57,600 nucleotides of DNA from Promethearchaeota archaeon (GCA_013375475.1 JABXKD010000009.1:1-57600); one strand, 5' to 3'; numbered from the stretch's first letter, positions 7,590 through 45,525 are shown. Notes: generated from the letters alone by a model not told the origin. Made by a program: numbers and translations.

Positions 7590-8453
7590 CTAAAATCCTG
7601 CTAATAATTCTTTAGGTCGAACTCGATGAAAGCTCATTCCTAATTCTTCAGGTTTGAACCCAAATGCGAGGGCTATTAACTCTGAGAGATAAAAAACAGG
7701 GAAGTTATAACCATTTTCTTTTTCTTTACTCAGTTCTCGTTGGTTGAAATCGAATTGTTGAAAACATGCTGGACATACTAGGCTAACACAATTCGCACCA
7801 GCTTCTTGAATTGACTTGAATTTGTTATCTATCATTTGTAGAGAAATTTTTTTATCGGATTTCTCAAGAGGATTTCCACAGCATTCCATCTTTAATTCGT
7901 AATCTATAGAATCAGCACCTATAGCTTTAACAATTTCATCTAGAGTGTTTGGTTCAAAAGGATCATCCCAATTAATAATCTCAGAAGGTCTTAAATAATG
8001 ACACCCATAATGAACGGCAACTTTAAAACCAGTTAAAGGACGTTCCACATTTTCTCTTACTTTATCAAGATTTTCATAAAGAACCTGAGCGAAATGCTTT
8101 ACTTCAGTTTTACCCTCATATTTTTTACCAACAATCTTTAAGATTTTATTTACATCATTCTTTATTTCAGAATCTTTGTTTATATAGTAATTAACTCCTT
8201 TAAGAGTTTCAACACAACCCGAACAAAAAGAGATAATTCCACCATTATTATTTGATAAGCTTAAATTTCTTGCACCTAAAGCTAACCAAGTTTTATGATC
8301 TATAAGTTCTATACCCGTTGGATCAGGACAACAACTAAACCCATCAACATCATTCAATTTAATACCAAGCTTTTCAAATACTTTTCTTGAAGATGCTTCT
8401 AAGAATGGAAGCCTTGCCGGAATTACACACCCTAAAAATAAATCATAAGACAT
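7590..8453 (-). CDS. hdrB: Heterodisulfide reductase subunit B
   Basis: FLGC, SCCP, CSGC, HYGCH, ECCG, CPAC..QFD CCG-domain motifs. Confidence 0.92.
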   Translation of the reverse strand: MSYDLFLGCVIPARLPFLEASSRKVFEKLGIKLNDVDGFSCCPDPTGIELIDHKTWLALGARNLSLSNNNGGIISFCSGCVETLKGVNYYINKDSEIKNDVNKILKIVGKKYEGKTEVKHFAQVLYENLDKVRENVERPLTGFKVAVHYGCHYLRPSEIINWDDPFEPNTLDEIVKAIGADSIDYELKMECCGNPLEKSDKKISLQMIDNKFKSIQEAGANCVSLVCPACFQQFDFNQRELSKEKENGYNFPVFYLSELIALAFGFKPEELGMSFHRVRPKELLAGF

Positions 8454-18462: not shown

Positions 18463-19011
18463 GTGTTAAAAATGACAGATCGTGAAGGCGCGTTTAAATT
18501 ATGCATTTTTGGAGATGGAGGTGTAGGGAAAACTACTCTAGTTAATAGATATCTCACAAAAATATTTGACGAAGACATAAAAATGACTGTTGGTGCTGAT
18601 TTTTATGTTAAAGACTTAGAAATTGATGGAAAGAAAATTGTCGTTCGAATTTGGGATTTTGGGGGAGAACAACGCTTTAAAGTGCTATTACCTAGCTTTG
18701 CTAAAGGTGCTGATGGGGGAATATTTATGTTTGATATAACTCGATATACAAGTGTAAAAAACATAGATGATTGGCTTTCAATTTTTGAGAAAAATGTTAG
18801 GGAAGCAGAATTAAATTTGCCAATTATTATGGTGGGAGGAAAACTAGATCTCCAAGAAAAACGATCTGTGGAAACCGAGGACGCTGTTGAATTGTCTGAA
18901 AAATATAATTTACAGGGTTATTTTGAATGCTCTTCCAAAACTGGTGATAAGGTAGAAGATATATTTGAATATATAACTCGAAAAATGATGAAATCTACAG
19001 GATTGCTATAA
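18463..19011 (+). CDS. Rab/Ras-like small GTPase (Asgard eukaryotic-signature type)
   Basis: GDGGVGKTT (G1), TVGADF (G2), WDFGG (G3), GKLD (G4 variant), CSSK (G5); start may be ATG 18472. Confidence 0.92.
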   Translation: MLKMTDREGAFKLCIFGDGGVGKTTLVNRYLTKIFDEDIKMTVGADFYVKDLEIDGKKIVVRIWDFGGEQRFKVLLPSFAKGADGGIFMFDITRYTSVKNIDDWLSIFEKNVREAELNLPIIMVGGKLDLQEKRSVETEDAVELSEKYNLQGYFECSSKTGDKVEDIFEYITRKMMKSTGLL

Positions 19012-32094: not shown

Positions 32095-32394
32095 ATGGTA
32101 AATACTAAAAAAGATTATCAAAAAATCCTAGGATCAGTCCAAAAACCCGTTAAAGGTGAAGCTGGAAAAACAGGAACATGGAGTCCTAAGAAACCTATAA
32201 TAGATCTAGAAAAATGCATTCCCGTAAAATCTGGAAAACCTAGCTGTTTTAATTGTTGGCTATATTGCCCAGAAGCAGTAGTAACCCGGACTATCCCTCC
32301 AGAAATAGATTTAGAATATTGCAAGGGATGCGGAATCTGTCAGGAAGAATGTCCCGTGAAAGCAATTTCAATGGAAGAGGTGAAAATTGAGTGA
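32095..32394 (+). CDS. porD: 2-oxoacid:ferredoxin oxidoreductase delta subunit
   Basis: KTGTW..KKP, CFNCWLYCPE, YCKGCGICQEECP; start reset to ATG 32095. Confidence 0.9.
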   Translation: MVNTKKDYQKILGSVQKPVKGEAGKTGTWSPKKPIIDLEKCIPVKSGKPSCFNCWLYCPEAVVTRTIPPEIDLEYCKGCGICQEECPVKAISMEEVKIE

Positions 32395-33686
32395 CAATCA
32401 CAGAAAAAAAACATGACTCAAGCGATAGAAAAATAAAAATTATAACTGGAAACCACGCTGCAGCACATGCTCTTAGGCAAGCGAGAGTTGGAGTCATAGC
32501 AGCTTATCCAATAACTCCACAGAGTCCTGTTGTGGAGAAAATCGCAGAATTTATTTCAGAAGGAAAACTAAAAGCAAGATTTGTTAAAGTAGAATCAGAA
32601 CATTCCGCACTCGCGGTATGTTGCGCGGCTTCCGCTACAGGTTCTAGAGTGGGTACAGCAACCTCTTCACATGGTTTGATGTATATGTATGAGCTTTTAC
32701 CATGGGCTTCCGGAAATCGTCTACCGATAATAATCAATTTAGCTACCAGAGCTACTGGTGCCCCTTGGTCTGTTTGGACAGATCATCAAGATTTTATAAC
32801 CATACGCGATGTTGGTTGGATCCAGATGTTTTGTATGGATAATCAAGAAATATACGATACTAACATACAAGTTTTCAAAATATCTGAAGATCCTCGAGTC
32901 TTTCTTCCATCTATCGTTGCATATGATGGTTATATTTTATCTCATACGATGATGCCAGTTTCTATTGAAAATCAAGAGGACATTGATAATTTTTTACCTC
33001 CATTAGAACATCATTACAACCTTTCTGATGTGTCTATCGTGAAAGGAATAGATCCAGTAACCACACCTCATATAAGAGATAGAGGTTCTGAAGGAACAGC
33101 TCCGGGATATTTTGAATATAGATATGCAATGCAAAAAGCTCTTGAAAATTCAATTGAAATCATAATGGAGGTCCACGATGAATTTTCAGAAAAATTTGGA
33201 CGATCCTATGGAAATGGGATTTATAAAACTTATTTGACGGAAGACGCTGATATAGTAATATTTGCAATGGGATCAGTAGCTTCTCAAGCGCGAAATGTTA
33301 TCAGTCAGCTTCGTAAAGAAGGATTAAAAGTCGGATTAGTTAGTTTAAAACTATTTAGGCCTTTTCCCGTAACTCTATTACGAGATTTGTTTAAAGAAAC
33401 AAAAATCGTGGTAGTTTTTGATAGAGATATTGGTTATGGTTATGAAGGGGTTCTTTCATATGAATTGAAAGCAGCTTTATACGGTTTGAAACAAGCCCCG
33501 TTTATCAAAGGATTTATCGTAGGATTAGGCGGAAGGGATGTAACCGACCAACATATTGCTAAAGGAGTGACTAAAGCAATAAAAGAATCAGAAAAAGGAA
33601 AAATTTCCCATGAAACTGATTTTATTGGGTTAAAACTGGACAATTTAGCTGATTATGATGAGGAAGATTATTTTAAAGGAGGATAA
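32391..33686 (+). CDS. porA: 2-oxoacid:ferredoxin oxidoreductase alpha subunit
   Basis: GNHAAA, AYPITPQS, VESEHSA, TATSSHGL, FRPFP, GLGGRD. Confidence 0.93.
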   Translation: MTITEKKHDSSDRKIKIITGNHAAAHALRQARVGVIAAYPITPQSPVVEKIAEFISEGKLKARFVKVESEHSALAVCCAASATGSRVGTATSSHGLMYMYELLPWASGNRLPIIINLATRATGAPWSVWTDHQDFITIRDVGWIQMFCMDNQEIYDTNIQVFKISEDPRVFLPSIVAYDGYILSHTMMPVSIENQEDIDNFLPPLEHHYNLSDVSIVKGIDPVTTPHIRDRGSEGTAPGYFEYRYAMQKALENSIEIIMEVHDEFSEKFGRSYGNGIYKTYLTEDADIVIFAMGSVASQARNVISQLRKEGLKVGLVSLKLFRPFPVTLLRDLFKETKIVVVFDRDIGYGYEGVLSYELKAALYGLKQAPFIKGFIVGLGGRDVTDQHIAKGVTKAIKESEKGKISHETDFIGLKLDNLADYDEEDYFKGG

Positions 33687-33691
33687 AAAAA

Positions 33692-34591
33692 ATGGTTAAA
33701 TTAATGGAAATTCCTGAAGAAGAATATATATTTCCTGGCACTAGAGCTTGTGCGGGATGTTCAATGGCATTAATATATAGAATAGCTCTTAAAGCAATGG
33801 GTCCAAAAACAATAATTACAGTTCCGGCATCCTGTTTAACTGTTTTACACGGTATGCAAGGATTCTGTACAACCAAAGTTTCTGTTCTTCACACTCCGTT
33901 TGCTACTACAGGTGCTTCAGCTTCGGGAATTGTTGCTTCACTTGAAGATAAGGGCTTAGCTGACGATGTGAATGTACTTGCTTTCGCAGGAGATGGTGGA
34001 ACCGTCGATATAGGAATTCAGAGTTTAAGTGGAGCTGTTGAAAGAGGTACGAATTTTATTTACGCTTGTTACGATAATGAGGCTTACATGAATACAGGGG
34101 TTCAAAGAAGTGGAAGTACGCCACCTGGTGCTTATAGCACTACTACTCCTAACGGTAAAACGGGATATAAGAAAAATATGGCTAAAATTCTAGAGGCTCA
34201 TGGAATTCCTTATGTTGCTACGGCTATTTCTTCCTACCCTCTTGATTTATACGAGAAATTTAAAAACGCTCAAAAAATTCAAGGTCCAAAATACATTCAT
34301 ATCCTCGCTCCATGCCCCCCAGGGTGGGGATATAACCCTAAGGACTCAATTGAGATTGGGAGATTAGCAGTTCAAACAGGATTCTGGCCGCTATACGAAG
34401 TTATTGAAGGTAAATTTATCTTATCAAAGGATAGTCAAAGATTCATAGATCCTGCTAAAAGAAAACCTATTGTAGAATATTTAAACATTCAAAAGAGGTT
34501 TAAAGACATTTCTGATGAATATATTGAACAATATAAAAGTTATATTGAAGCACAGTGGAAAGAGATTGAAAGAAGAATTAAAAATGAATAA
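33692..34591 (+). CDS. porB: 2-oxoacid:ferredoxin oxidoreductase beta subunit
   Basis: ACAGC, GDGGTVDIG, DNEAYMNTGVQRS, APCPPGW. Confidence 0.93.
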   Translation: MVKLMEIPEEEYIFPGTRACAGCSMALIYRIALKAMGPKTIITVPASCLTVLHGMQGFCTTKVSVLHTPFATTGASASGIVASLEDKGLADDVNVLAFAGDGGTVDIGIQSLSGAVERGTNFIYACYDNEAYMNTGVQRSGSTPPGAYSTTTPNGKTGYKKNMAKILEAHGIPYVATAISSYPLDLYEKFKNAQKIQGPKYIHILAPCPPGWGYNPKDSIEIGRLAVQTGFWPLYEVIEGKFILSKDSQRFIDPAKRKPIVEYLNIQKRFKDISDEYIEQYKSYIEAQWKEIERRIKNE

Positions 34592-34706: not shown

Positions 34707-35492
34707 ATGCTAAAAACATACATTTTCGACGATTCTAACAAAAAATGGATTGAAGAAGATAAAAGTTTACTGTACCACGATCTGTGTGCTATTTTGGACG
34801 AAGAGCGGAATATTATTTATTTATGGAATGGACCAAAAAGCTCTCAAGAAAAACTTAAAAAAGGATATAGTCTATTAGAAACTTTAATGTCCTACTACCC
34901 AACCATAAATTTTAAACTGTCAATATTAAAGAAAAAAGTACCAAGTGATATTCAAGATAGGATAGATCTAATGTTAAATAAAATAAAACAAGAAGAAAAA
35001 AAAGATTATTACAAATTTTCCCGATTTACGACCTTAAGGTTATATTTTATTCTTTTGTTAGGTTCAATAATTTTTCCTATCTTATCTTATCTAAATCTTG
35101 TTTCTTCATTAATGTGGACAAAATCAAACATTAATTTTGAAATTGGAGCAGAAGCATATAACAATTGGTTGTTAATTTCCTTTATTTTAATATTGATTTC
35201 TTTAATTTTCTTTAGTATTATGATAATTATAGGAATTATTGAAATTGAATACCAAGCTATAGTTTTTTCCTTGTTAGGGGTATTAGTTTGTATCGGTTTA
35301 GTTATTTACTTACAGCAAGGAATATTTTTGTTTTTGTTTCAAGGAGGTTCTTCTTCTTCAATTTATTATTTCAGACAAAATGATATAGTTGAGTTTCTAA
35401 TCTTAATTATCTTGGGAATTTTAGTTTTTGAAATACCAAATACGATAAAACTTATCTCATTGATGAAGAATTATAGAAAATTCATTTTTTGA
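34707..35492 (+). CDS. Membrane protein with N-terminal gelsolin-like domain and four TM helices
   Basis: DLCAILDEERNIIYLWNGPKSSQEK matches the gelsolin-repeat core D-x-x-x-I-L-D...I-Y-x-W-x-G-x-x-S-S-x-x-K; four hydrophobic stretches after residue ~112. Confidence 0.7.
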   Translation: MLKTYIFDDSNKKWIEEDKSLLYHDLCAILDEERNIIYLWNGPKSSQEKLKKGYSLLETLMSYYPTINFKLSILKKKVPSDIQDRIDLMLNKIKQEEKKDYYKFSRFTTLRLYFILLLGSIIFPILSYLNLVSSLMWTKSNINFEIGAEAYNNWLLISFILILISLIFFSIMIIIGIIEIEYQAIVFSLLGVLVCIGLVIYLQQGIFLFLFQGGSSSSIYYFRQNDIVEFLILIILGILVFEIPNTIKLISLMKNYRKFIF

Positions 35493-35545: not shown

Positions 35546-36427
35546 ATGGCTGAAGCAGCAAAAATTCTTCCGGATATGGAAAAAGAAGATCTAAGAATTC
35601 TAATGGCAATTGAAATAGGAATGAAAAGATCTGAATATGTTACGGTAAACAACATAAAGTTTTATTCCAGATATCCAATAGAAGAAACCCTTTTTCGTCT
35701 TAAAAAAGTACATAAATGGAATCTAATTGTAAGAGACTCTTCTAAAAGCGAGGTGGGTTATACGCTAAATTCTATTGGTTATGATGTATTGGGGCTTCAC
35801 ACTTTAGTTGAGAAGAAGATAATAAGTCAATTAGGGCCTTTAATCGGTAAAGGAAAAGAATCAGATGTTTACGGGTGTATGGATGATAGTAAGAACATAT
35901 TCGCTTTAAAAATTTATAGGATAGGTAGAACCAGTTTCAAAAATATTAAAAAGTTAAGAAGTTTTCAAGGGGATCGAAAACACATTTCCTGGTTATACGT
36001 TAATAGACTTGCAGCTAAAAAGGAATTTGAAGCTTTAGGTGAAATTTATAAACTCAAATTGGACACTCCCAAGCCAATAGATTTTAATAGACACATAATA
36101 GTGATGTCATACCTGAGAGGAAAGGAATTAGCATATTCTCAAAATATCAAAAAACCAAGTAAGGTTTTCAATAAAATTATTAAACAAATCAAAGAAATAT
36201 ACCAGAATGCGAATATGATACATGGAGATTTAGGAGAATTTAATATTGTCTTAGATCATAAAGATAATATCTTGATTATTGATTGGTTACAATGGGTTCC
36301 CTCAGATCACCCAAATGCTAAATCTCTATTAGAGCGAGATATAGAGAATGTATGTAATTTCTTCAAAAAGAAATATCATGTCGAAAGCGACCCCTATGAG
36401 ATTATTCAATCGTTCTATAACAAATAG
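35546..36427 (+). CDS. rio2: RIO2-type serine/threonine kinase
   Basis: N-terminal wHTH (GYTLNSIGYDVL), GKGKESDVY, RIGRTSF, HGDLGEFNI, IIDW.Q. Confidence 0.93.
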   Translation: MAEAAKILPDMEKEDLRILMAIEIGMKRSEYVTVNNIKFYSRYPIEETLFRLKKVHKWNLIVRDSSKSEVGYTLNSIGYDVLGLHTLVEKKIISQLGPLIGKGKESDVYGCMDDSKNIFALKIYRIGRTSFKNIKKLRSFQGDRKHISWLYVNRLAAKKEFEALGEIYKLKLDTPKPIDFNRHIIVMSYLRGKELAYSQNIKKPSKVFNKIIKQIKEIYQNANMIHGDLGEFNIVLDHKDNILIIDWLQWVPSDHPNAKSLLERDIENVCNFFKKKYHVESDPYEIIQSFYNK

Positions 36428-38890: not shown

Positions 38891-40930
38891 TTGTTTAAAG
38901 AAATGATATCCGTTTTGGAAAAGATAATTGATGAATTTGAAAGCAAGAAATTTATAGAGAAAAACAATAATCGAGATCGAGGTGTAATTTACACACCTCA
39001 ACCGATTGCAGACTTTATGGTAAGAAATACTTTTAAATTTTTTTTTGGCAAATTTCCTGAGATCCAAAAAATCTTCCAAAAAAACTGTGATAGCAAAATT
39101 CTAAAAGAAATTTTCGTAGAAAATAAAAATATTAAATGCAGGTTTGAGACTAAAATTAGAAATATTAAAGTATTAGATCCCGCCTGTGGAACAGGACGAT
39201 TTTTGATTGCAGCTGCTAAATTTCTTTTCAAGATTTATAAAGCACTTGATTTAAAGAGCTCAGATCAAAAAATAAAAAGAAAAATAATTCAAAATCATCT
39301 CTATGGAATCGAAATCGATGAATCGGCATATCTAATATCAAAAATAAGGTTGATATCATGGATTTATTCTGATATTGATGCTTCTATTTTGGATGAATCC
39401 ATTGATATCAATTCAGACTTTGGTAAAATAAAAGAGTTTGTCAATAATTCTGATGTGAAATTTAACATATGTAATATTGATTATCTTCTACAATTTAATT
39501 CAACGGATTTTGATATTATAATTGGAAACCCTCCCTATGTCGAGAATAAGAAGATATTAGATTTAGAATTTAAACAGAAAATAAAAAAAAAATTTGAATC
39601 TGCTTACGGTTTATACGATCTTAGCATTGTTTTCATTGAGAAATCAATTGAACTGTTAAAAAATGGCGTTGGATGCTTATCCTTTATAACTACTAACAAA
39701 TTTCTATCAGCCGATTACGGTCTGAAAATCAGAGAATTGATGATTCGAAAAACAGAACTTAAAGAGATCATAAATATCTCATCTTTACCGATTTTTCATA
39801 AAACAGCAGCTTATCCTGTAATAATATCTTTTAAAAAAAGGACGAGCACTAAAAATACAATTATCATAAAAAACTTTGAGATTATGGAGGATTTTGAGCA
39901 ATTTCATGATGAAAGAATAATAGTATATAACCAAAATTCAATTAAAAACCTTCCTTCAGCTGTAATACCGATATCACAAAGTGTAAAATTGGTTAATCAA
40001 TTGTATACCAATTTTAAACCTATGAAAAGTGTAATAAAAGATTTAAAAATTCTTTATCGTCCTTTTGGATTTATTAACTGGGCAGAAAATTTCAAAAATA
40101 TCTCTAAAAACAAGACGTCTAATAAAGATTTATTATTAATCGGGACTGGAAATGTTGGTAGGTTTTATATTGATTACAAAAAACATATTAAAATTGCGAA
40201 AAAAAATCAAGAAATAACCTATTTTAGATTCCAATCCAAATACAAAGATGTTTGGGACAAACTTGGCAATGAAAAAATTATCTTCAGGGAAATTGCTAAA
40301 GATATTACTTGTGTATATGATCCTGGTGTCTATGTTAATTTAACTGGCTTATATTTTTTGAATGTGCCATCTTTTAAAACAGACGATTATTTCTGTTTAC
40401 TAACGATACTCAATTCAGCTTTAATTGATTTGGTTTTTAAGACTTTATACGGAACTCTACACATGTCTGGGGGGTACCTAAGGTTTAATGGAAGTTTTAT
40501 AAAAAATATTCCACTGCCAAATAAATTTCCTCTAACTCTCTCATATATAGGTAAGGTACTCCAATTCTTATATCAGCTAAAATATGAAACTCTGCAAGGA
40601 TCAAATTTTCAGTTAGAAAATAATACAAAATTAAAAGATATTCTTAATCATCTCAACTTTTATGAGAAGTTATCTAACTCATTAGTAAATCAACTATATT
40701 TACATTTAGAGCATTATGATGAACTGAATAAGCTTCTTTATAGTTCTAATCTATTCCCTAATGTTGAATTTAAATTTATGAATTCTTTATATGAATTACC
40801 TAGTTATATTGTTTATGAAAAAAGAGAAGTAGAAGAAATATTAAATCATATCAATAAGTCCATTAATTTATTAAGTGAAAATTCAAAATTAATTAAACAA
40901 ATGAATAAAATCTTAACAAGACAATTATAA
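38891..40930 (+). CDS. N6-adenine DNA methyltransferase (gamma class, Eco57I/TaqI-like) with TaqI-C-like target recognition domain
   Basis: YTP, VLDPACGTGRF, LYGIEID, IIGNPPY, ILNS..GGYLRF..IKNIPLP; start may be ATG 38903. Confidence 0.88.
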   Translation: MFKEMISVLEKIIDEFESKKFIEKNNNRDRGVIYTPQPIADFMVRNTFKFFFGKFPEIQKIFQKNCDSKILKEIFVENKNIKCRFETKIRNIKVLDPACGTGRFLIAAAKFLFKIYKALDLKSSDQKIKRKIIQNHLYGIEIDESAYLISKIRLISWIYSDIDASILDESIDINSDFGKIKEFVNNSDVKFNICNIDYLLQFNSTDFDIIIGNPPYVENKKILDLEFKQKIKKKFESAYGLYDLSIVFIEKSIELLKNGVGCLSFITTNKFLSADYGLKIRELMIRKTELKEIINISSLPIFHKTAAYPVIISFKKRTSTKNTIIIKNFEIMEDFEQFHDERIIVYNQNSIKNLPSAVIPISQSVKLVNQLYTNFKPMKSVIKDLKILYRPFGFINWAENFKNISKNKTSNKDLLLIGTGNVGRFYIDYKKHIKIAKKNQEITYFRFQSKYKDVWDKLGNEKIIFREIAKDITCVYDPGVYVNLTGLYFLNVPSFKTDDYFCLLTILNSALIDLVFKTLYGTLHMSGGYLRFNGSFIKNIPLPNKFPLTLSYIGKVLQFLYQLKYETLQGSNFQLENNTKLKDILNHLNFYEKLSNSLVNQLYLHLEHYDELNKLLYSSNLFPNVEFKFMNSLYELPSYIVYEKREVEEILNHINKSINLLSENSKLIKQMNKILTRQL

Positions 40931-42807: not shown

Positions 42808-44250
42808 CTAAACCCTCCCCCAATCTGAAAACTCCATGATTTTATTATAATTTTCGATTATACTTTTAAAGATTACTGAACCTAAACAAAATGCATTAAT
42901 AAAATCTTCAAATTTTAGCTCTAAGAGTTTGCTGTTTTCTTCCGAAAAACCTACACCGCGTTTAACTTCTATTTTGCCGTCATATCCAGATAGATTCACA
43001 ACAAATTCCTGTTTTTCCAATCCTTTAGTATAAATACCTCTTGCAATCCTAGCTAAACCTCCAATCGGGACGATTTTATCATTAATTTGAGCTAGATAAA
43101 TTCGCAAATCGAATGTGTGTTTATTATTTTCCCAATTAATTAGTGAGAAATCTGCTTTCTCTTGAATTGTGTATGGAAATGGTTCTCGGCTTCTGGAAAA
43201 TTTATTATAAAATTCTTTTTTACTTTCCTCAATAATTTTTATAATTCCTTCAGATTTTTCTCCTTTAAATATCGGAATTACTCCTGCACCCCCAGATCCC
43301 CCGCTAGGTTTTATTATAAAAGACTTTTTATTCTTTTTTATTAATTTTTTTACTTTGTGATTTAAATCTTGTTCATCGTAGGCTTTAGTGAATATTAAAT
43401 ACTTTAAATTATACTTTTTAAGCACATTTTTGCTCAAAAAACTGGCAACATATGTGAGAGATTTATCGTCAGTAATTTTAAAAATTGGATTAACAATTAT
43501 GGTGTTAATTCGACGAAAATCTTTACTAATTAGTTCATCAAATTTTTTATCATTAAGACGCCTTGCTATTCCATCTCCTATTAAAACATGCACTCTTTCG
43601 CCTTGATACCAAAACCAACCATTAGAAAAAGATAAGATCTGACTTAATTGTTTGTAATCAGATATTATAAACACAACTTTCGCTTCATGCTCCTTATTAT
43701 AATTCTCTGAATTAAAAATTTTTAGGGTATATCCCCGAAATTTAATTTTTTTTCTCAAATATTCAACCATAATTACTTTTTCGTGAATTAATCCGTCATT
43801 AAAGGGGACACCTACTAACACTAGGATTTTTTCATTTTCTTCTTTAGACTTTGCGATAGCCTGAGATATTGATTCGTAATAGCCATCATATAATATTGCT
43901 TGTTGCTTTTTCGTGAGTATGGATAAACCCCGATTTGAACCGCCATTCGTTTCGAGCAGGAAGAATTCCTTGTTTTCAGGGTTATTACTTACCATAAAAT
44001 CTACGCTTCCCGCATAAAACGAGTAATTATTACTTACGATATTATCGTTACTCTTAGCAAGCCTCTTTAATGCCTCATTTCTTACACGATCAATAAATTC
44101 ATCATCTTGGGAATCACGAAGTTTTGAAAAAGATATTAAATCTAAACCTAATGATCTCCCCAAGGGAACTAATTCTAAATCAGACTCGGATATCTCTTTT
44201 GACATTAATTTTAGGAATTTGGTTAATAAATTCTCTTCCAAATATATCAC
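42808..44250 (-). CDS. ATP-grasp ligase, circularly permuted (YheC/D- or TTL-like motifs)
   Basis: DDK, FIIKPSGGSGGAGV, YTIQE, FDLRIY, VVNLS; the D..ExN metal-binding segment (SVDF...LLETN) lies at the N-terminus. Confidence 0.75.
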   Translation of the reverse strand: MIYLEENLLTKFLKLMSKEISESDLELVPLGRSLGLDLISFSKLRDSQDDEFIDRVRNEALKRLAKSNDNIVSNNYSFYAGSVDFMVSNNPENKEFFLLETNGGSNRGLSILTKKQQAILYDGYYESISQAIAKSKEENEKILVLVGVPFNDGLIHEKVIMVEYLRKKIKFRGYTLKIFNSENYNKEHEAKVVFIISDYKQLSQILSFSNGWFWYQGERVHVLIGDGIARRLNDKKFDELISKDFRRINTIIVNPIFKITDDKSLTYVASFLSKNVLKKYNLKYLIFTKAYDEQDLNHKVKKLIKKNKKSFIIKPSGGSGGAGVIPIFKGEKSEGIIKIIEESKKEFYNKFSRSREPFPYTIQEKADFSLINWENNKHTFDLRIYLAQINDKIVPIGGLARIARGIYTKGLEKQEFVVNLSGYDGKIEVKRGVGFSEENSKLLELKFEDFINAFCLGSVIFKSIIENYNKIMEFSDWGRV

Positions 44251-44319: not shown

Positions 44320-45525
44320 TTATAAATATAGATATCCTTGGTGATTCCCTTTAATGCTTAACCTTAGACTTCCAAGCAAAATTTTTTTCACTTTGCTTTG
44401 TTCCTTGAAATTTAAATCGGAAAACAATAAAATGTAGTTCTTTTCAAGATTTATTACGAATAAGAGACCAATTCTTATGAGCTTAGAATCTTCTGTAAGT
44501 AAAGCAATAATTACATAGTGATAAGGGAGAGTAATTAGATTTCTAATATCAATATCTGATTCAATAATTTTATCTTCCTCAAGATCATAACCCGCTTTTA
44601 TGAATTTAATGTCATCTAGAGGTATTGAAATTTTTCTGAAATTTTCTAAAACCTTAGCAAACTGACTTTGGCGTAAAAATCTTCTTTCTTCTTTATCCTT
44701 ATCGTAGAAGTAGTTATTCTGTTCTTTTAAAAATAATATTTTTCTCTTCTTCGATTTAGATGCGTTTTTTTCAATTGCTTCTAATTCTTCGATACTATCG
44801 TCATGAAATACAATCAAGATATCAGGATCTACAGTATCTATAAAAAAATTCTTATATATAATTCCCGCTTCTGTTCTTATCCATCCATCACTATCGATGA
44901 GAATAATATCCGAATCTTTATGCGTCGATTGGAAATTGTTAATTAGGTCGTTACATGAGTGTGATACAATAAATTTGAAATTAGCTTTTGGGAAGGTACT
45001 ACCAATAAAAATGGTATCTTCAGTTTTAATATCAGCGCTTGAAACTATGTTTTCTTTTATTTCCCCTATATTAAGCGTTGTTGGAAGGTATAATAGTTGC
45101 TGTCCTAAATCCGAATCTAAAAATGATGCTTTAAATCCTTCATTGAATAGATTATTAGCTAAATATTTTATAAGAGTAGTTTTGCCACTACTTAATCCTA
45201 AAACCATTAGTTTTATTGGTTTTTTTTCTTCATTTTTGCGAATGATACCGATAACAGTATCCTTAATTTTAATCCATTCTTTACTGATCGTGTTTTCTTC
45301 GACAATTTGTATATTATCCTTGTTACTTGTGATAATCTCAAGTTTCGATGGTTCCAAAGCATATAATGGATAATTATTCGCACTTGGTATTATTATTGTG
45401 CTCTCAAGTTCATTCTTTTCTGGTACAAACACTTTACCAAAAACTTCTATCTTTCCTTCTAACAATCTAACCCTAGATGGACCTTTTACTAAGAGCGTGT
45501 GTTCCGTTTGCACTTCTTGTATCAT
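44320..45525 (-). CDS. Clp1/Grc3/Nol9 family polynucleotide 5'-hydroxyl kinase-like protein
   Basis: TLLVKGPS..LLEG N-domain, SGKTT, DSDLGQ, IDSDGW, ERRFLR lid. Confidence 0.85.
   Translation of the reverse strand: MIQEVQTEHTLLVKGPSRVRLLEGKIEVFGKVFVPEKNELESTIIIPSANNYPLYALEPSKLEIITSNKDNIQIVEENTISKEWIKIKDTVIGIIRKNEEKKPIKLMVLGLSSGKTTLIKYLANNLFNEGFKASFLDSDLGQQLLYLPTTLNIGEIKENIVSSADIKTEDTIFIGSTFPKANFKFIVSHSCNDLINNFQSTHKDSDIILIDSDGWIRTEAGIIYKNFFIDTVDPDILIVFHDDSIEELEAIEKNASKSKKRKILFLKEQNNYFYDKDKEERRFLRQSQFAKVLENFRKISIPLDDIKFIKAGYDLEEDKIIESDIDIRNLITLPYHYVIIALLTEDSKLIRIGLLFVINLEKNYILLFSDLNFKEQSKVKKILLGSLRLSIKGNHQGYLYL

Follow-up and report, generated by a model that had tools for sequence, protein, structure and literature searches.

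The gene that we call TMGel lies in a window of 57,600 nucleotides (the whole stretch of DNA analysed, GCA_013375475.1 JABXKD010000009.1:1-57600) from a Promethearchaeota archaeon, between the genes for a 2-oxoacid:ferredoxin oxidoreductase (PFOR) and a RIO2-type kinase (Table 1). The surrounding stretch is AT-rich (about 30% GC), ordinary Asgard chromosome, and the window encodes elsewhere Hdr/Mvh-like oxidoreductases, MutS/MutL, a Ras-family GTPase, shikimate enzymes and ribosomal proteins. The Ras-family small GTPase (18463-19008, +; Pfam Ras, 147.6 bits) is a typical Asgard eukaryotic signature protein. A 480-aa open reading frame (42811-44250, -) that matches no Pfam family at E<=1e-5 adjoins a gene for a Clp1-type P-loop protein (44323-45525, -), and an Eco57I/MmeI-type restriction-modification methylase gene (38891-40927, +) is situated where the GC content of that half of the window is lowest (0.267-0.278); the latter region may be a horizontally acquired island.

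PFOR-beta adjoins TMGel in all nine loci examined from family f1 of the window's own order, and RIO2 lies within 300 nt in seven of these, 2 kb off in one and is absent from one. The syntenic block in this family comprises PFOR-delta/alpha/beta, TMGel, RIO2, a methyltransferase, LSm, GGACT and a phosphoesterase, and outside f1 parts of it are kept in only 1/7 loci. Across these genera TMGel is 38-51% identical, against 56-85% for PFOR, RIO2 and LSm and 40-49% for the methyltransferase. The neighbourhood was considered as a functional clue and rejected because the syntenic neighbours are all non-cytoskeletal; in the window and the loci compared they are housekeeping genes, with no cytoskeletal gene among them.

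Table 1 Coordinates of TMGel, its predicted elements and its flanking genes, counted from the first nucleotide of the window
Feature	Coordinates	Strand	Basis
2-Oxoacid:ferredoxin oxidoreductase, alpha and beta subunits (upstream)	32391..34591	+	Pfam POR_N/PFOR_II, TPP_enzyme_C
TMGel, whole gene (261 codons plus stop)	34707..35492	+	ATG-initiated ORF, translation
Predicted cytoplasmic gelsolin-homology domain, residues 1-96	34707..34994	+	AF2, Foldseek, VIA, N-domain profile
Gelsolin core motif, residues 25-50, with D31...W40-x-G42 signature	34779..34856	+	Pfam alignment, invariant columns
Predicted long helix, residues 47-63	34845..34895	+	Column counts, HMMER alignment to 7c2f_B
Basic linker before TM1, residues 97-105	34995..35021	+	Low model confidence
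Predicted TM helix 1, residues 106-136	35022..35114	+	AF2 models, hydropathy
Predicted outward beta-hairpin 1, residues 138-147, between invariant W137 and W154	35118..35147	+	DSSP
Predicted TM helix 2, residues 148-179, inner-face end at invariant G176, E179	35148..35243	+	AF2, columns
Predicted TM helix 3 with following short helix, residues 182-211; invariant I185, S188, G197, F209, F211	35250..35339	+	
Predicted outward beta-hairpin 2, residues 212-223, from invariant Q212	35340..35375	+	AF2
Predicted TM helix 4 continuing into basic cytoplasmic helix, residues 224-260; invariant E242, P244, N245, Y256	35376..35486	+	
RIO2-type kinase (downstream)	35546..36427	+	Pfam RIO1, Rio2_N

An AT-rich genome of about 30% GC favours long spurious open reading frames, but it is next to inconceivable that TMGel arises from chance or from faulty annotation, a reading already refuted by its conservation. 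We detected 212 homologues at E<=1e-3, nearly all of 259-262 aa and either unnamed or annotated as 'hypothetical protein', and an exhaustive phmmer search grouped the relatives into 76 clusters at 50% identity, with full-length members down to 22-30% identity. Full-length or partial matches occur in 130/400 genomes of the phylum, and confident AF2 models were obtained for both domains. Against eight same-genus orthologues, dN/dS is 0.07-0.21, a rough figure as dS is near saturation, and is alike for the head and the membrane part; both halves of TMGel are under purifying selection.

The TMGel family, which belongs to Lokiarchaeia-type Asgard archaea, is single-copy, as it is in the window's own genome, and essentially confined to one Asgard order. 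At E<=1e-5, matches were found in 129 of the 154 genomes of the window's own order (111/134 in f1, 1/1 in f2, 13/14 in f3 and 3/4 in f4, plus the window's own genome) versus one of 246 elsewhere in the phylum. It is missing from all four genomes of genus g6 (89-100% complete), a genus that encodes Lokiactin at 99% identity in 3/3 genomes searched. Members from f3 exceed the others in length (about 280-320 aa), and their cytoplasmic tail at the C-terminus bears a conserved short motif; some f3 matches are head-only, a free 92-aa protein among them. In the sister subfamily the tail motif reads R-P-(S/T)-I-L-R-D-K-E-P-V (P0170, P0174, P0178) and is absent from the window's protein. Other cytoplasmic tails were also observed, including a roughly 120-aa Lys/Glu-rich extension in P0122 and PATKPSTTKK-type repeats in P0193.

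In the f3 genome G138, which has no full-length TMGel match, a stand-alone soluble protein of 92 aa (L077:6028-6306, -) displays GWIxTE, DDIA...D and IYFWSGKKS, and this stand-alone protein suggests that TMGel arose by fusion of a ProGel-like gene to a 4-TM module. The sole match outside the order, in G058 (L072:1829-2962, -), is a copy of the head joined in frame via the linker to an EamA transporter (Pfam, 115.6 bits). This copy lacks the first three strands, starts at I-W-N-G-P-K-S-S and is 45% identical over 82 aa; it could be due to genuine shuffling of domains, to the decay of a fusion or to a chimeric contig.

The predicted head has the order b-b-b-b-long helix-b-helix, with strands at residues 2-8, 13-16, 26-31, 36-41 and 70-73 and helices at 47-63 and 80-96 (AF2 full-length model; 35-sequence alignment, mean pLDDT 84.5, pTM 0.58). 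A gelsolin-repeat core at residues ~25-50 had originally been proposed from the sequence, and these residues fall within the Pfam Gelsolin (PF00626) alignment, which pairs residues 18-60 with profile positions 11-52 of 76. The Pfam scores lie just below the cut-off of 21 bits, at 20.4 bits (E 4.8e-4) for residues 1-100 and 18.8 bits for the whole protein. The match nevertheless exceeds chance, and PF00626 is matched at E<=0.1 by 20 of 35 diverse family members. Searched against PDB sequences, a whole-protein profile retrieved gelsolin-family proteins in 24/27 matches at E<=10, the other three being RbcX. We also built a head-only profile from 19 rows (16 heads of membrane proteins from both subfamilies and three free-standing soluble relatives), 11 of which match PF00626 at E<=0.1. 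This profile retrieved villin (8.1e-17), gelsolin (8.2e-14), CapG (3.1e-9), Thorarchaeota ProGel (6.8e-6) and Lokiarchaeota 2DGel (1.1e-5), where the E-values for multi-repeat proteins add up several weak repeats, and 37 of its 38 matches at E<=1 belong to the gelsolin superfamily. With hhalign, the family profile reached probabilities of only 0.7% and 19% against the ProGel-like and 2DGel proteins of its own genome, single-sequence templates that are uninformative. Free-standing relatives of the head include the 92-aa protein of G138, which has the same motif pattern, as well as P0190 and P0191 (103 and 120 aa), the former of which passes the Pfam Gelsolin cut-off at 26.1 bits.

Structural comparison bears out the original prediction of a gelsolin fold in the N-terminal domain. 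The best Foldseek match of the AF2 model in the PDB is actin-bound ProGel (7c2f_B; E 3e-5, TMt 0.69, 87 columns, 21% identity), and among the matches listed 35/35 are gelsolin-family proteins (gelsolin, adseverin, CapG, villin, severin, fragmin and Asgard 2DGel). VIA-align superimposed the model on 7c2f_D with a Z of 10.0 and an rmsd of 2.6 over 84/88 residues. D31, W40, G42 and K44 are invariant in 35/35 TMGel sequences, and among 44 diverse members G42 is invariant and W40 mostly kept. A 'DWG'/'WxG' signature has been named for ProGel and 2DGel (PMC7444086, PMC9433394), and D31, W40 and G42 correspond to it, so that the D...WxG motif is present in TMGel. The predicted fold is that of gelsolin, a mixed beta-sheet between a long and a shorter helix, and as judged from profile, modelled fold and signature motif the head is a member of the gelsolin-homology superfamily.

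The long helix has one hydrophobic stripe (50, 54, 57, 60/61, 64), which we take to be its core-facing side, and is otherwise charged, with a conserved basic N-terminal half (K44 in 35/35, K/R47 in 25/35, K/R49 in 34/35, K/R51 in 30/35 and K/R52 in 29/35). In an ungapped HMMER alignment anchored by the identical W-x-G-x-K, G53 and N-Y-P, ProGel L51, F52, L55, M56 and V60 stand opposite TMGel Q/K47, E48, K/R51, K/R52 and Q/L56; by this alignment and the column counts, the ProGel-type hydrophobic residues on the N-terminal half of the helix are absent from TMGel. A WxG-anchored comparison, which is rough given only five soluble domains and unreliable anchoring, found positions 45, 47 and 52 hydrophobic in 0.6-0.8 of the soluble domains and in <=0.03 of TMGel. 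Across the wider family the face of the long helix varies and is not conserved. Cofilin binds actin through basic residues of its own long helix. Since the actin-binding mode of ProGel is in turn described as most similar to that of cofilin (PMC7444086), a basic helix does not disqualify TMGel from binding actin. The basic face, some 10 residues away from the bilayer, might just as well rest against anionic lipids or against the acidic inner loop of the bundle.

At the position aligned to the long-helix glutamate of gelsolin (1d0n), which we take to be a ligand of the type-2 Ca2+ site, 34/35 TMGel members carry lysine or arginine. Of the pair that would make up this site, the aspartate of the D...WxG strand (D31) is present and the glutamate is missing. 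ProGel, with lysine at this position, is described as having no Ca sites (PMC7444086). Ca2+ control of TMGel, for which the original prediction had foreseen assays, is unlikely because of this substitution.

C-terminal to the head, the charged helix noticed originally corresponds to the predicted helix 80-96 together with the low-confidence linker (pLDDT below 50 for residues 97-103), and the four transmembrane segments claimed there agree with four AF2 helices and with the Kyte-Doolittle hydrophobic blocks at 109-138, 151-215 and 224-255. The third helix is modelled as residues 182-201 followed by a short helix at 204-211. Two beta-hairpins are predicted on the side opposite the head: hairpin 1 (strands 138-140 and 143-147, DSSP) also appears when the membrane module is folded alone, and hairpin 2 has strands 212-215 and 219-223 in the full-length model and only the second strand in the TM-only model. 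Folded by itself from an 18-sequence alignment, the module reaches a pLDDT of 89.9 and a pTM of 0.83. Of the 23 columns that are invariant in the close family, it holds 14 (W137, W154, G176, E179, I185, S188, G197, F209, F211, Q212, E242, P244, N245 and Y256); the sister subfamily does not retain E179, E242 and N245.

Charge distribution indicates the orientation of the protein. Mean K+R is 4.1 over residues 97-111 (the pre-TM1 linker), 0.2 in the TM2-TM3 loop and 2.8 at the C-terminus (249-261), compared with 0.6 and 1.0 on the two hairpin loops, K+R counts averaging 7.1 on the predicted inner segments versus 1.6 on the outer loops. Because K+R is concentrated on the inner segments, TMGel is likely to be N-in/C-in with its head in the cytoplasm, and no N-terminal hydrophobic segment was found in the protein, in agreement with the earlier proposal of a cytoplasmic domain without a signal peptide. 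The inner loop (178-183) is acidic, with a mean D+E of 2.0. The models therefore describe TMGel as a predicted N-in/C-in four-helix bundle with two outward beta-hairpins, carrying one cytoplasmic head on a basic linker of about 10 residues.

Searches with the membrane module returned no significant match, and it appears from the models to be a conserved four-helix unit without a relative in known families. No Pfam family matches it, and a Foldseek search of the PDB with the TM-only model gave 0 matches at E<=1e-3 (best ZnT1, 0.55, and cornichon, 0.65-0.81). A wide VIA search found only generic helical bundles, the best being a designed protein (Z 14.1), and a search of the ESM Atlas with residues 100-261 found only the module's own family, at 0.85. 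At the sequence level, an internal duplication (TM1-hairpin-TM2 versus TM3-hairpin-TM4) was rejected, as its hhalign score of 10.4 falls within the range of 20 column-shuffled controls (6.7-15.3). Candidates for a TM-only homologue were likewise rejected, as the short matches P0146, P0188 and P0150 seem to be fragments, a chimera or the products of mis-called starts. The membrane module probably has a partner or role of its own too. Taken together, the original reading holds in that a genuine gelsolin domain, predicted to be cytoplasmic, sits on four membrane-embedded helices; the term 'anchor' undersells a module whose conservation equals or exceeds that of the head and which is predicted to bear two outward hairpins.

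An actin system is encoded by the same genome, as the original prediction assumed for Asgard archaea. We identified Lokiactin (a 381-aa ORF, 441.7 bits) and six soluble gelsolin-domain ORFs. The genome has a Loki2DGel-like gene of its own, with a C-terminal Cys-rich end, an architecture described by Akil et al. 2022, who add C-terminal linker/Zn extensions (PMC9433394). On contig C20 of this genome, a divergent actin-family gene (1656-2771, -; 165.7 bits to Pfam Actin) shares its strand with an ORF for a soluble gelsolin-domain protein of 282 aa some 5 kb away (7724-7915, -), and the two could represent a pairing of an actin-related protein with its regulator.

Akil et al. 2020 (PMC7444086) distinguish three architectures in Asgard archaea, ProGel, 1DGelX and 2DGel; in vitro, Asgard gelsolins sever, cap, nucleate and bundle. 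According to the same paper, ProGel binds actin at the gelsolin/cofilin site and bundles filaments, but only at very high concentrations (256 uM); as a single domain it has little effect in pyrene and viscosity assays, while 1DGelX severs independently of Ca2+ (PMC7444086). Cultured Lokiarchaeia form dynamic, Lokiactin-filled protrusions and crawl, and the protrusion dynamics depend on Lokiactin (Nature 2026, PMC13716822). In L. ossiferum, that study puts the number of gelsolin-homology proteins at nine and deals with five soluble ones that Co-IP enriched; its supplementary tables list only these five by accession, in addition to InterPro/asCOG identifiers (PMC13716822). Co-IP probably under-represents membrane proteins, as stated in its preprint version. 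In its available text, Lokiarchaeial actin is discussed with soluble gelsolins, profilins, BAR proteins and an ARF GTPase only, and no protein coupling Lokiactin to the membrane is named (PMC13716822). The original prediction knew of no characterised integral-membrane gelsolin, and our literature search, which covered article full texts, likewise found no description of a transmembrane gelsolin; an earlier description of the architecture may nevertheless exist.

Among known proteins, TMGel is closest to ProGel, and it is no Ca-regulated gelsolin. Its head and ProGel (PDB 7C2F, PMC7444086) are both single gelsolin/cofilin-type domains of about 90 residues that have in common the D...WxG signature and a lysine in place of the type-2 long-helix glutamate. 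However, ProGel (94 aa) is free and soluble, whereas the head of TMGel (261 aa) is permanently joined to a 4-TM module and only 21% identical. The aligned long-helix residues are hydrophobic in ProGel and charged in TMGel, and actin binding is solved for ProGel and proposed for TMGel. TMGel is thus not a ProGel, being neither free and soluble nor equipped with the helix residues of ProGel. 2DGel/1DGelX, gelsolin, villin, CapG and adseverin share the homology domain with TMGel (profile E 8e-17 to 1e-5), but these proteins differ from it in having at least two domains or extra soluble modules, together with WH2-like motifs and Ca2+ sites. No transmembrane segment is described for any of these proteins in the available text of the two papers (PMC7444086, PMC9433394). 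Sec23/24 provides a gelsolin fold in a membrane-associated machine without demonstrated actin binding, as the gelsolin-like domain of Sec23a is not known to bind actin (PMC7444086). Unlike in TMGel, this domain is part of a large soluble coat protein; Sec23/24 was not among the Foldseek matches listed for the TMGel model, to which it may nevertheless be similar.

In eukaryotes, supervillin, with its gelsolin repeats, and the ERM proteins hold actin at the membrane and are peripheral, recruited and much larger proteins that are not integral to it. The job proposed for TMGel is the same, with no homology of the membrane part implied.

We tentatively propose, at a little less than an even chance, that TMGel, as an integral membrane protein with a ProGel-type gelsolin head, keeps Lokiactin at the membrane; its architecture and topology follow from the analyses above, and the binding we infer. 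The head would bind Lokiactin most likely at the filament side, in a loose cofilin-like mode as for ProGel, and the contact would be made through the conserved basic face of the long helix and not through a hydrophobic ridge, so that filaments would be held against the membrane. If the 4-TM module oligomerises, which is speculation, weak single-site binding could become a multivalent anchor. Consistent with this proposal, the homology extends to both sequence and fold, the nearest relatives are actin binders, and ProGel, 1DGelX and 2DGel all act on actin (PMC7444086). The genome also encodes Lokiactin and soluble gelsolins, the predicted topology puts the head on the actin side, heads of this type have free-standing soluble relatives (the G138 protein, P0190), and both halves of the protein are under purifying selection. 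Moreover, protrusion dynamics depend on Lokiactin (PMC13716822), and according to the preprint version of that study its Co-IP probably under-represents membrane proteins. The long helix argues otherwise, as polar and charged residues face the positions of ProGel L51, F52, L55, M56 and V60, the hydrophobic positions of soluble domains are hardly so in TMGel (by the five-domain comparison, with its unreliable anchoring) and the helix face is not conserved across the wider family. The high concentration at which ProGel itself bundles actin, the retention of Lokiactin in genus g6 without TMGel, the non-cytoskeletal neighbours, the weak hhalign scores against gelsolins of the same genome and the existence of gelsolin-like folds without known actin binding, e.g. 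Sec23a (PMC7444086), weigh in the same direction. Alternatively, the fold may have been repurposed, with TMGel not binding actin and its head acting as the membrane-proximal regulatory or lipid-binding part of a 4-TM module, a quite credible alternative if appreciably short of an even chance.

In this alternative, the polybasic helix would dock either on the acidic inner face of the bundle (E179, E181, E242) or on anionic lipids, and the 4-TM module with its outward hairpins would do the real work, whether sensing, scaffolding or partnering another membrane or surface protein. The predominance of invariant columns in a membrane module that folds alone, the exposed basic face of the helix, the acidic inner loop, the truncated head-linker copy attached to the EamA transporter of G058, the absence of TMGel from a Lokiactin-bearing genus and the precedent of Sec23a (PMC7444086) all favour repurposing. 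However, the nearest structural and sequence relatives of the head are actin binders and the family occurs only in a Lokiactin-bearing lineage; moreover, the TM module offers no nameable function, as neither Pfam nor the PDB nor the Atlas yields a relative and the monomer shows no polar, pore-like lining, and the sister subfamily does not conserve E179, E242 and N245. That TMGel is a membrane-localised actin regulator and not a passive tether, its head capping, sequestering, severing or nucleating Lokiactin at the membrane, appears unlikely. Soluble Asgard gelsolins act in this way in solution, with severing, capping, nucleation and bundling observed in vitro, and a single-domain head resembles 1DGelX, which severs without Ca2+ (PMC7444086), but the 261-aa protein lacks a second domain, a WH2-like motif and a domain X, the residues of the Ca2+ site are missing, and single-domain ProGel does little in pyrene and viscosity assays (PMC7444086). 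It is similarly doubtful that TMGel is a minimal-integrin-like coupler, in which oligomeric heads would engage Lokiactin inside and the hairpins would engage surface proteins or substrate outside, transmitting force in protrusion or crawling, with the basic helix switching between lipids and actin.

With its conserved integral membrane module and cytoplasmic gelsolin-type head, TMGel is a concrete candidate for coupling Lokiactin to the membrane. If it does not bind actin, it would instead exemplify an early recruitment of the gelsolin fold to a different role at the membrane. Either outcome bears on the origin of actin-membrane coupling before eukaryotes.
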